Assembly (NCBI RefSeq): GCF_002854065.1
Contig: NZ_CP024147.1
DNA from: Escherichia coli
GTDB lineage: Bacteria > Pseudomonadota > Gammaproteobacteria > Enterobacterales > Enterobacteriaceae
DNA length: 64,000 nucleotides
Reading direction: 5' to 3' (one strand)
Shown: piece by piece, positions 10,736 through 13,700 of the stretch
Position numbering within the stretch: position 1 is the first letter of the stretch
Layout of the letters: each line of letters begins with the position of its first letter
Program-made: the position numbers

Positions 10736-13700
10736 TGACACTCTATAAGAGTTTCAGCGAAGCGATCGCAGTGATCGGCCAGGTCTGTGAAATCGGTGGC
10801 AGAACTGAAAGGAATGGACAGTAAATCATAATCAGGGGTGAGGATTGTAGCCATAAGGCAACCTCCGATAAGTAGGCGTTAAAACCACCACCGAAGAGAC
10901 CAATCTTACGGGTGGTGGAATCGGGCGGAGTTGGTCTTACCGGCCTTATCGGATACCGGCGCATCTTTCGATGCTGGCAGGGAAAGCGGACATACCTGTA
11001 CGACGCGGAACAGCCGTACACGCCGGTGGCGGCCATCACGGGGCGCGGAGAGAGCCAGAAAATCTGGTATTACCACACGGACCTGACGGGCACGGTACAC
11101 GAGGTAACCGCGCCGGACGGGACGCTGGTGTGGGCGGGCTACCAGGCGGGATTTGGTGAAAACCGGGGCGACATCAGCAACAGCGGGGCGTACTTTGAGC
11201 AGCCGCTGCGGCTGCCGGGGCAGTATTATGATGAAGATACGGGGCTGCACTATAATCTGTTCAGATATTATGCGCCGGAGTGCGGGCGGTTTATCAGTCA
11301 GGACCCGATAGGGCTGGCGGGAGGAATAAACCTATATGCTTATGCGCCTAATCCGCTAAGTTATATTGATCCTCTTGGGCTTTGTAAATTAAGGGGAAGC
11401 GATGGGCGCTACAGAAGTGCACAGAATATTCAGGAAGAAATAGGCGGCCTACCCAATTTTGCAGGAAAAACTCCAGGAGAAATACGACAAACTTTGCGTA
11501 ATCGAGGTTATTCGTCGGTACAAGCGTATAGTGGAGGAGAGGTCTGGACAAAAGCATTACCTGACGGAAATACTGTTGCAGTGAGGCTTGATCCGGCAAA
11601 TCCTCGCTCACCTTCACATTATGCTGATGCTGTACCTCATGCTCATATTGAAACAGTTCCAACATCCAGTGTTTCTAATGGGAATTATCGCCCGCGAGAC
11701 GTGACTGGCAGGCATACTGCCACTGGTGGGGTTTCTGATCGAGGAACAAATCCGAATCATAACGCTGATGTTTACATTCCAATGTCTCCGGGACGATTCC
11801 CATATGATTAATGTGAGGTTTTATGAATATCCGAAATCAATATAATGAAGCCTTAAATAAATTAGAAGTTGATGTTAATGATGGTTTGAGAGATTTAATA
11901 AACATATATTGTGTGGCTATTGATTCTTTTGAAAATGATATCGTTGACTCGATTGCTTTATACGTGATTGATATGGGAAATAAAGATACTTGTCGATATC
12001 TACAAGAAGTCTTATCAGAGAATGAAGATCCTTATTTAGTAAAAGAATTTAATGCATGGATAAAAGAAATTAAGAAAAAATATTAAAATAAAAGCCGGGA
12101 AGGTTATAAAATCTTCCCGGCTTTTTATTTTTAATTCTCGTTCAGTACACTAAACATCCCGTCCCGCATCCCCTTAACCGCCTGTTTAACCTGATAAAGT
12201 TCCCTGCGCAGTTCCTGTACTTCGTTGTTATCGGCAAGCAGGATCAGGCAGCCTTCCGAGATCTTCACAGTAACGCCCGTGCCGATCGAAAATTCCGCTT
12301 CTCTCAGCCATTTGGCGCTGATTTTGATCACCGGCGTGTCGCTGCTGTTGGGCAGATATCCCACGGTACAACGGCGTTGTGTTTTGGAAATGGTGACTTC
12401 TGGCGTAATATCATGTTTAAGTTAGGGGCTTTCGTAGTCATACCCCGACTCTCCCCGGCCCTAAACACAACCCCCACTCACCACAACCTAAACTCATCCG
12501 CATCCTGCCATGCCGGAAACTTTTCTCTATATTCCCGCAATGCCATCATCGACAGCTCCGCATCAATGCGCGTTGCCTGATGCGCGTCGGCAGTAGCGAT
12601 AATCTCGCCTTGTGGATTAATCACCCGGCTGTCACCGCGATAATGGCAGCCGTTGCCATCGCTGCCGACGCGATTGCATCCCGCCACATACGCCTGATTC
12701 TCAATCGCGCGGGCCGTCAGCAATGCCTGCCAGTGCAGAGAGCGCGGAGCAGGCCAGTTGGCGACGTACAGGGCGAGGTCATAATCGTTGAGATTGCGCG
12801 ACCACACAGGAAAACGTAAGTCGTAGCACACCAGCGGCAAAATACGCCAGCCGCGCCATTCCACAATCACTCGCGCATTGCCCGCTTTATAATGCAGATG
12901 CTCATCAGCCATTCGGAACAGATGACGCTTATCATAAAAATGTACCGTGCCGCCCGGCTCAACCAGCAAAAAGCGGTTAACTGAACCAGACTCCGTTTGT
13001 AATGCAACACTGCCTGCAATCAGCGCATTGCACTGCTGCGCTTTAGCTGTCATCCAGTTCACTACGTCATCTTGCGCTAGCGACGAAGCTGCCGCTTCCA
13101 TGGCAAAGCCGCTGGTAAACATCTCCGGTAGAACGATCACATCGCGCCCGGTAATACCTTCCAGTTGACGATCAAAATGACGCAGGTTGGCAGGACCATC
13201 CATCCACACCAGTGGTTGCTGCAAAAGCGTAATCTTCAAACCAGGCACGGTGTACAACTCCTTTATGCGAAGGGTTTTATAACTTTAACACCTTATCAGG
13301 CAGTTGCCTTAGCGCAGAATAAATTGATAACAAATGCTGATATTGGAAATATCTGATTTGCAAATTATCGTGTTATCGCCAGGCTTTAGGAGGTTAATAA
13401 CATGGGCAGGATAAGCTCGGGAGGAATGATGTTTAAGGCAATAACGACAGTCGCCGCTCTGGTCATCGCCACCAGTGCAATGGCGCAGGATGATTTAACC
13501 ATTAGTAGCCTTGCAAAGGGCGAAACCACCAAAGCTGCGTTTAATCAGATGGTGCAAGGGCATAAGCTGCCTGCATGGGTGATGAAAGGCGGTACTTATA
13601 CTCCCGCACAAACCGTAACGTTGGGAGATGAGACGTATCAGGTGATGAGCGCGTGCAAACCGCATGACTGTGGCTCGCAACGTATCGCTGTGATGTGGTC

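Follow-up and report, generated by a model that had tools for sequence, protein, structure and literature searches.

A stretch of 64,000 nt from an Escherichia coli chromosome (assembly GCF_002854065.1, contig NZ_CP024147.1; the whole stretch is called the window here) leads from the aspV type VI secretion system (T6SS) island, represented by tssE, tagJ and an FHA-type gene on the minus strand, to yafV, ivy and fadE. At the yafV edge of the island, positions 10975-12391 contain the end of an rhs gene, a toxin-like tail, a small AT-rich open reading frame (ORF) and a symE-like gene. The question raised by this locus is whether these pieces form a working toxin cassette or what is left of one. 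A first-pass annotation of the window had described them as an orphan module composed of an rhs core end, a toxin and its immunity gene, followed by a SymE-family gene, and this composition was confirmed. The most probable reading, in our view, is that 10975-12391 is the stranded last cassette of a degenerate rhs array, comprising a PT7-type tip with a crippled toxin, an intact immunity gene and a SymE remnant. The parts of the cassette are as follows (strand given as + or -).

10975..11382, +, rhs core-end remnant (407-nt repeat; Pfam RHS PF03527, 30.7 bits)
11302-11316, DPIGL codons, within the rhs core-end remnant
ending at 11382, PxxxxDPxGL autocleavage motif, reading ...YAPNPLSYIDPLGL and then CKLRG
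11383..11811, +, orphan C-terminal toxin domain, 142 aa (11383-11808) plus the stop codon (11809-11811)
11584, 11590, 11638, 11644 and 11650, family-invariant residues R69, D71, H87, H89 and E91 of the tail
11773-11775, Y132 (TAC), where the HIP motif reads YIP
11823..12086, +, immunity candidate, 87 aa, 11 nt past the toxin stop, with its own GAGG ribosome-binding site
12090..12125, bidirectional intrinsic terminator with a 16-bp stem, between the immunity and SymE-like genes
12131..12391, -, SymE-family (AbrB-fold) remnant, frame open from 12391; the form starting at GTG 12364 has 77 aa

Residues of the tail are numbered with the Leu encoded at 11380-11382 as residue 1. We judge the toxin part to be non-functional because it lacks an Rhs body, a promoter and a convincing start, because its sole recombination partner is a TssH::Rhs chimera located upstream, and because the histidine of the HIP motif is a tyrosine; the consequences are read from the sequence.

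The cassette is an object of an ordinary kind, an orphan Rhs toxin/immunity cassette. It starts with a core fragment, without the Rhs N-terminal body and its start, and the PxxxxDPxGL end of the core is followed by a variable C-terminal domain. Like the orphan rhs-CT/rhsI modules of Enterobacteriaceae, it consists of a core fragment ending in that motif, a variable toxin domain and then a small AT-rich immunity gene, it lies downstream of another rhs in a T6SS-linked island, and its tip is also found on a full-length Rhs of another strain. Unlike them, it belongs to a degenerate array with a TssH::Rhs chimera upstream, its core has been cut to 407 nt by a further deletion of ~7.3 kb, and its toxin allele has a probable active-site substitution.

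The core end repeats that of the upstream rhs. Positions 6671-7077 and 10975-11381 form a direct repeat of 407 nt without gaps, with 381 identical positions (93.6%); identity is 96.6% on the 5' side of the DPIGL codons and 81% from DPIGL to the DPxGL motif, and beyond 11381 the likeness to the upstream rhs drops to background level. The repeat had been recognized in the first-pass annotation, but with ranges that were unequal (371 and 390 nt) and too short. The GC content of the rhs core is 61-68%. On the left, the homology begins abruptly at 10975 and the preceding sequence is unrelated; the GTG at 10912 that opens the ORF bearing the tail (10912-11811) sits in this unrelated sequence. In strain CUWW06, which is 100% identical to the window across 10700-12500, PGAP annotates 10978-11382 as a partial RHS core pseudogene. 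The pig strains F2_81 and PE164 are identical to the window from 10975 on, and both E105 and F2_81 have the same orphan with 1.4-1.6 kb of core (1.4 kb in E105). In E105, the sequence found left of 10975 in the window lies 7.3 kb off, upstream of another rhs. Compared with E105, the 10974/10975 junction, at which unrelated sequence is joined to rhs core, corresponds to a deletion of ~7.3 kb, with no obvious microhomology. As judged from these alignments, position 10975 is a deletion junction and not a cassette boundary. The segment to its left (10580-10974), which carries a minus-strand pseudogene, occurs in just 38 genomes.

After ...PNPLSYIDPLGL, the reading frame continues uninterrupted for 142 codons up to the stop at 11809-11811, and includes HYADAVPHAH (11617-11646) and NPNHNADV (from 11749). 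The tail is basic (pI 9.2). It had been described as a tail of roughly 145 aa of unrecognised family containing these two motifs; the motifs are there and no curated model matches, but the length is 142 aa and the tail can be placed in a polymorphic-toxin family. Pfam, NCBIfam and PDB sequence searches, including those with profiles of 7 and 32 sequences, yielded no family, the sole profile hits being weak PASTA-like matches in the N-terminal helix-strand part, and a scan of 32 family members gave no Pfam model match in any of them. A word-indexed search returned just 11 relatives of the tail, one of them a PAAR fusion (P0010, 46% identity). The tail profile run against 1.84 billion cluster representatives retrieved 132 proteins at E<=1e-3, 89 of them at E<=1e-10. 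The domain is C-terminal in nearly all full-length family hits, whose carriers reach 5789 aa; the carriers scanned contain TPS, haemagglutinin repeats and PT-VENN (CdiA type), RHS repeats, PAAR, PAAR-like or PT-TG domains. Because of this C-terminal position on polymorphic-toxin carriers, the tail is, by sequence, a member of a sizeable family of polymorphic-toxin C-terminal domains. The family consensus is LPxLxGKxxxEIxxxLxxxGY...GGxVWTK...AVRxDP...ADEVPHAHKExVP...GNY...DDxG...HIP, in which five residues (one Arg, one Asp, two His and one Glu) are invariant. In RefSeq/PGAP records the annotated feature ends with the rhs core, leaving the 142-codon tail unannotated in all four genomes that contain the exact sequence; in six of six related RefSeq records the tail is unannotated or nameless and the immunity gene is labeled "hypothetical".

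DNA corresponding to the tail plus the immunity gene was present in 21 of 5426 complete E. coli genomes. In four of these the DNA matches the window exactly and lies at the yafV locus, and 15 have copies of the E2348/69 type (two were inspected, and both adjoin pptA). Strain 06-00048 has an orphan near ybgA. The last one, JNE151685, encodes a 1576-aa Rhs protein (WP_286347636.1) with this tip, and behind it come the immunity gene and an intact SymE-family gene; the tail-plus-immunity DNA of this strain is 96% identical to that of the window. The presence of the tail on this full-length protein bears out the earlier view that it is a genuine Rhs tip. In E2348/69 (locus L002, 7713-8577) the toxin is frameshifted and the Rhs core belongs to a different clade; the toxin is followed by the immunity gene and then by a SymE gene cut to 66 aa by the next Rhs fragment. 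On a full-length Rhs such as that of JNE151685, the Rhs shell would enclose the tip, cleavage after DPLGL would free it, and the T6SS would carry it into the target cell. There it would work as a PT7-type metal-dependent DNase by means of the RxDP aspartate, the HxH histidines and the HIP histidine, and the immunity protein would bind to the basic active-site face, blocking the toxin.

PT7 is a Mg-dependent non-specific endoDNase with a novel fold and no tRNA activity, and the toxicity of its mutants D37A, H47A and H73A is fully abolished (Nachmias et al., bioRxiv 10.1101/2021.10.19.465003). The PT7 sequence was taken here from fragments translated from the mutagenesis primers (Table S11 of bioRxiv 10.1101/2021.10.19.465003): an N-terminal one (MTKKEIL...), a middle one (...TIRMRID37PPDKVT43KYDH47VHLYDEN...) and a C-terminal one (...KSPDAH73IPYKM). 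These fragments match the AVRxDP, PHAH and HIP motifs of the tail family in the same order, and a local HMM alignment placed them on exactly those motif positions, with a negligible score of 2.2 bits. Fold similarity between the tail model and the PT7 structure (8OWU chain C) was found by one structure-comparison method. According to the primer fragments and the 2.2-bit alignment, the residues kept by the family that would be equivalent to D37, H47 and H73 are the Asp of RxDP, the two His of HxH and the His of HIP; the window copy retains D71 and H87/H89, and has Y132 where the HIP His is expected. The tail is probably a distant, enlarged, motif-sharing structural relative of the PT7 DNase, for which fold and motifs were observed and a DNase activity is predicted.

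PT7(Bc) and the tail family have in common R-[IL]-D-P, H-x-H and a C-terminal [AV]-H-I-P, in this order, as well as K-x-x-E-I at the start of the first helix; in PT7(Bc)/PIM7, as in the window, a C-terminal polymorphic-toxin domain is followed by a small immunity gene. A relationship between PT7(Bc) and the window family was, however, not detectable with sequence profiles. The window domain has an N-terminal extension and about twice the length; its Asp-to-His loop has 16 residues (10 in PT7) and the segment preceding HIP has 45 (26 in PT7). The carriers also differ, being Rhs, CdiA and PAAR proteins for the window family, while PT7 is described as LXG-fused. The window immunity protein is all-helical and appears unlike PIM7, which is known here by its description in the preprint, and the window copy reads YIP where PT7 reads HIP.

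This last difference sets the window tail, with DVYIPMS, apart from all other full-length alleles, which have D[VAS]HIP. The HIP His is kept by the full-length JNE151685 Rhs, the orphan of 06-00048, the E2348/69-type copy, a Pectobacterium fragment and close metagenomic relatives, and by 28 of 32 aligned family members. The Tyr allele was found in the four yafV-locus genomes, whose tails are 100% identical, and in one metagenomic fragment, P0005. A second apparent Tyr, in P0105, was discarded as an artefact of a truncated excerpt, AHIRIP being present further on in the protein. Since the equivalent PT7 mutant, H73A, is non-toxic, Y132 probably cripples the enzyme, which by analogy would leave the orphan toxin attenuated or dead.

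The sequences located upstream of the cassette determine whether the tip could return to an Rhs protein. They include the following features.

3220-4493, IS2-type element (IS3 family)
4502-7390, +, TssH::Rhs chimera (TssH/ClpV profile plus Rhs C-terminus)
9323-10536, second IS3-family two-ORF element

Residues 13-298 of the 4502-7390 product match positions 24-298 of the 852 of the TssH/ClpV profile; from about residue 300 it corresponds to the last ~650 aa of an Rhs protein, with an AHH nuclease tip (residues 855-941). The two IS3-family elements bracket the degenerate rhs region and break the T6SS locus. Exchange with the upstream rhs, predicted in the first-pass annotation as a route for switching toxin tips, is allowed by the 407-nt direct repeat, but the partner is the TssH::Rhs chimera. 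Recombination over the repeat could delete 4.3 kb and yield a TssH'-Rhs-tail fusion, a product expected to be undeliverable because the Rhs N-terminal region is missing. The complete 2800-10600 arrangement of the window was found in none of the complete E. coli genomes of the collection. A candidate immunity ORF (7384-7845) overlaps the stop codon of 4502-7390. CUWW06 lacks the entire ClpV-Rhs segment and has an IS3-family copy directly beside tagJ. The Rfam isrC family (RF01387) matches 10400-10504 (-) with 118.5 bits (gathering score, 39), at the 5' end of an IS3-family element and over the start of its first transposase ORF.

The immunity candidate is in better condition. The AT-rich 87-aa ORF reported earlier at 11 nt from the tail was confirmed at 11823-12086, with its GAGG site and a GC content of 27-32%. 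Its product is acidic (pI 4.4, net charge -7.5) and is predicted to be a five-helix protein (model pLDDT 93.9); no family model matched it in Pfam and NCBIfam searches. Its homologs form 45 clusters, all with >=57% identity, from Escherichia, Providencia, Citrobacter, Pantoea, Brenneria and Pectobacterium. The immunity homolog of Brenneria izadpanahii is separated by 14 nt from the end of a preceding tail homolog (87% identity), and the same 14-nt spacing is kept in Pectobacterium brasiliense, where an IS splits the tail homolog. The toxin-immunity adjacency is kept in three genera and, within E. coli, at three loci. This conserved adjacency, the spacing and the charge complementarity make the 87-aa ORF the candidate cognate immunity gene. 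It would be the sole part of the cassette likely to be under selection, protecting the cell against neighbours that deliver active toxin. Orphan immunity arrays of the Vibrio cholerae T6SS (PMC5361080) are similar in that an intact immunity gene outlasts the delivery or activity of the toxin, the plausible benefit being protection against kin that still fire it. Unlike those arrays, the window keeps a full-length, probably crippled toxin ORF attached to the immunity gene, and its array is of the Rhs type, with SymE-family genes as punctuation.

The bidirectional terminator announced in the first-pass annotation, downstream of the immunity gene, was also recovered. Its hairpin is stable on both strands (-26.9 kcal/mol on + and -23.4 kcal/mol on -; z-scores -7.8 and -6.1), is followed by U-runs on both, and is conserved behind other cassettes.

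Beyond the terminator lies the SymE-like gene, which had been noted to lack the usual N-terminus. The 77-aa ORF scores 34.6 bits with the Pfam SymE_toxin model (PF08845; threshold 29) and the extended frame 44 bits. The N-terminal deficit is real, since the 77-aa ORF matches just profile positions 10-52 of 54 and lacks the first strand of the SymE domain. In Pfam this domain begins at QRRxTVGY, upstream of GTG 12364; this GTG, the first and only canonical start, has no Shine-Dalgarno sequence and removes 20 residues. Intact homologs have 97 aa (JNE151685) and 109 aa (06-00048) and begin MAEHDITPEV... after an AAGGTAG/AGGAGTAG ribosome-binding site. Compared with them, the window copy has lost the ATG, the Shine-Dalgarno sequence and about 33 nt, and has a TAA at codon 3. 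With the SymE equivalog model NF010128 (cutoff, 132 bits), the window copy scores 36 bits and an intact homolog 48, so neither is an equivalog. A promoter and SOS regulation, whose search had been recommended, were not found: the promoter scan upstream of the gene was negative, and no LexA box lies near it, the sole exact CTGT-N8-ACAG match in the window being at 1164. The Rfam scan (E<=10) listed no match to SymR. On this sequence evidence, the SymE-like gene is a remnant and not an SOS-regulated gene. A promoter-like site is present on the + strand inside it (12264-12293). Relative to K-12 SymE/SymR (PMC1891008), the window gene likewise belongs to the SymE/AbrB-fold family (PF08845), but it is not an equivalog, has no detected LexA box or SymR match and has a destroyed 5' end; unlike K-12 symE, its intact relatives sit behind a Cro-type HTH gene. 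For such pairs of SymE and Cro-type HTH genes, Kawano et al. inferred control at the protein level (type II-like) and not by an antisense RNA (PMC1891008).

The Rfam scan gave two further matches in this region. Ssr1 (Shigella small RNA 1) matches 11953-12394 (+) with E 4e-72 and 250 bits, against a gathering score of 820, and the match runs across the terminator and, in antisense, the SymE-like gene. Published Ssr1 maps between the Rhs gene SF0268 and SF0269 in Shigella, which suggests that it probably derives from a comparable Rhs-linked locus. The other match is to isrA, which in Salmonella has been described as a cis-antisense RNA of the STM0294.1n 5' end; it is weak, lies below the gathering score and falls on the antisense of the GVTVKI coding stretch, so that coding conservation could explain it. 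Both were rejected as small RNAs of the window on account of their scores, and were read as locus or coding homology, a sign that Shigella and Salmonella possess homologous loci.

Several observations weigh against a cassette with a PT7-type tip and a dead toxin. The PT7 link depends on a single structure-comparison method, applied to a model built on a shallow 7-sequence alignment; a Foldseek search against the PDB gave nothing significant, and family HMMs of 7 and 32 sequences failed to retrieve 8OWU from the PDB sequences at E<=10. PT7 was available as primer-derived fragments and its full sequence was not seen, which, with the 2.2-bit score, makes the motif correspondence less secure. The immunity model gave generic helical-repeat matches alone in fold comparisons, and PIM7, described with an alpha1-betaA loop, appears to be a different protein. 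As for the toxin, its ORF is still uninterrupted, leaving room for recent or continuing function, and Tyr could conceivably replace His in catalysis, so its inactivation is what we infer. Part of this evidence would suit a toxin of other activity (an RNase or a non-nuclease, for example) that shared just a small alpha/beta scaffold with PT7: profiles do not tie the family to 8OWU, Foldseek gives no match, the N-terminal part of the tail has weak PASTA-like matches, and the primer-anchored PT7 numbering leaves no room for the ~30-residue N-terminal helical extension and the two insertions of the tail. We nevertheless regard this as unlikely, given that the RxDP, HxH and HIP catalytic motifs recur in the same order and that a basic tail (pI 9.2) is paired with an acidic immunity protein (pI 4.4), as for a toxin that binds nucleic acids.

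A different objection concerns the state of the cassette. It might be a silent, fully functional reserve, in which recombination of 10975-11381 with 6671-7077 would swap the AHH tip for this toxin. The 407-nt, 93.6% identical repeat is in the direct orientation, the toxin frame is uninterrupted and the immunity gene intact, and recombination of this kind has reportedly been seen among rhs orphans of Salmonella (Koskiniemi and colleagues, 2014). The partner, however, has the first ~300 aa of TssH in place of the Rhs N-terminal region, the IS2-type and IS3-family elements interrupt the T6SS locus, and Tyr replaces the HIP His, whose PT7 equivalent is essential for toxicity; we consider such a reserve quite improbable. 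Slightly less probable still is that the SymE-like gene works as a type I toxin-antitoxin system like K-12 symE/SymR, translated from GTG 12364, controlled by an antisense RNA and stabilising the cassette. An ORF above the Pfam SymE_toxin threshold, the promoter-like site at 12264-12293 and the Ssr1 and weak isrA matches speak for such a system. Both Rfam matches are, however, below their gathering scores, the ATG, its Shine-Dalgarno sequence and about 33 nt are gone, codon 3 is TAA, GTG 12364 has no Shine-Dalgarno sequence and would omit the first strand of the domain, no LexA box is nearby and no SymR match was listed, and the Cro-type HTH gene that precedes SymE in intact elements is absent. 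The stranded-cassette reading, with a SymE remnant at its right-hand end, is retained.

The origin of that remnant can be approached from its relatives. The terminator plus SymE unit occurs at 389 places in 184 genomes, being far commoner than this toxin, and stands behind cassettes with different toxins. SymE-family genes beside RHS and haemagglutinin genes, and beside Cro-type HTH and primase-helicase genes, were already depicted by Kawano, Aravind & Storz in 2007 (Figure 7A; PMC1891008). In related loci a SymE gene lies in an element of ~4.6-7.4 kb composed of an rhs toxin tip, an immunity gene, SymE, a Cro-type HTH gene, a DnaG-type primase-helicase gene and a tyrosine integrase gene. The apparent insertion site is the DPIGL codons of rhs (GACCCGATAGGG). 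E. coli D6 contains two intact tandem copies (locus L010, 2307-9331 and 10742-18170). Each unit starts with a core fragment, a HYD1 ADP-ribosyltransferase toxin and an immunity gene, continues with two minus-strand genes (SymE and the Cro-type HTH gene), then with a DnaG-type primase that includes a P-loop region and with the tyrosine integrase, and ends with a short rhs core piece (annotated 84-87 nt) that opens the next orphan. An empty and an occupied version of one locus, at ybgA, are provided by JNE151685 (locus L005, 7921-7997) and 06-00048 (locus L006, 3277-7920). The insert of 06-00048 has 4644 nt and is flanked on each side by a copy of the 77-nt DPIGL...DPxGL segment; besides a new tip, an immunity gene and SymE, it brings part of a primase gene and an integrase gene with a frameshift, and the PT7-like tip is now an orphan that starts exactly at GACCCGATAGG. 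Six orphans of JNE151685 and 06-00048 begin at the same site, their left flanks falling into two conserved classes; BLAST places the starts of two Brenneria orphans <=3 nt from it, and the right end of the element abuts the site at 194 places in 56 E. coli genomes.

This arrangement makes it conceivable, though we hold the idea tentatively, that the SymE genes of rhs arrays, including the 12131-12391 remnant, are cargo of an integrative element that targets the DPIGL site and swaps toxin tips site-specifically. As a replacement, the element would bring the last ~77 nt of the core together with a toxin and an immunity gene, both new, and on its integration the old tip would become an orphan that retains about 77-84 nt of core. 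As part of the main reading, the comparison with these loci suggests that the remnant in the window is the conserved right-hand end of such cassettes, which in the related loci derives from a Cro-HTH/primase-helicase/tyrosine-integrase element at the DPIGL codons. Alternatively, a circular intermediate may insert by homologous recombination through the 77-nt segment. No description of an element of this kind was found in the open-access literature, which does not show it to be unpublished.

For the window itself, the value of these results lies mostly in correct annotation. To the earlier description they add the toxin family and its probable activity, evidence for the decay of this copy and for the closing of the route by which it might be re-armed, and the likely origin of the SymE remnant. 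A family of probable DNase toxins that comprises about 130 representative clusters but lacks a Pfam model has gone unrecorded in annotation. The link to PT7 would mean that this recently described DNase fold also occurs on Rhs, CdiA and PAAR carriers of Enterobacteriaceae, and suggests which residues are catalytic. The cassette shows toxin function probably lost, through delivery and an active-site substitution, with immunity kept. If the integrative element is real, it would provide a site-specific mechanism for the switching of Rhs toxin tips, and would explain the association of SymE with rhs genes that was noted in 2007 and was unexplained then.

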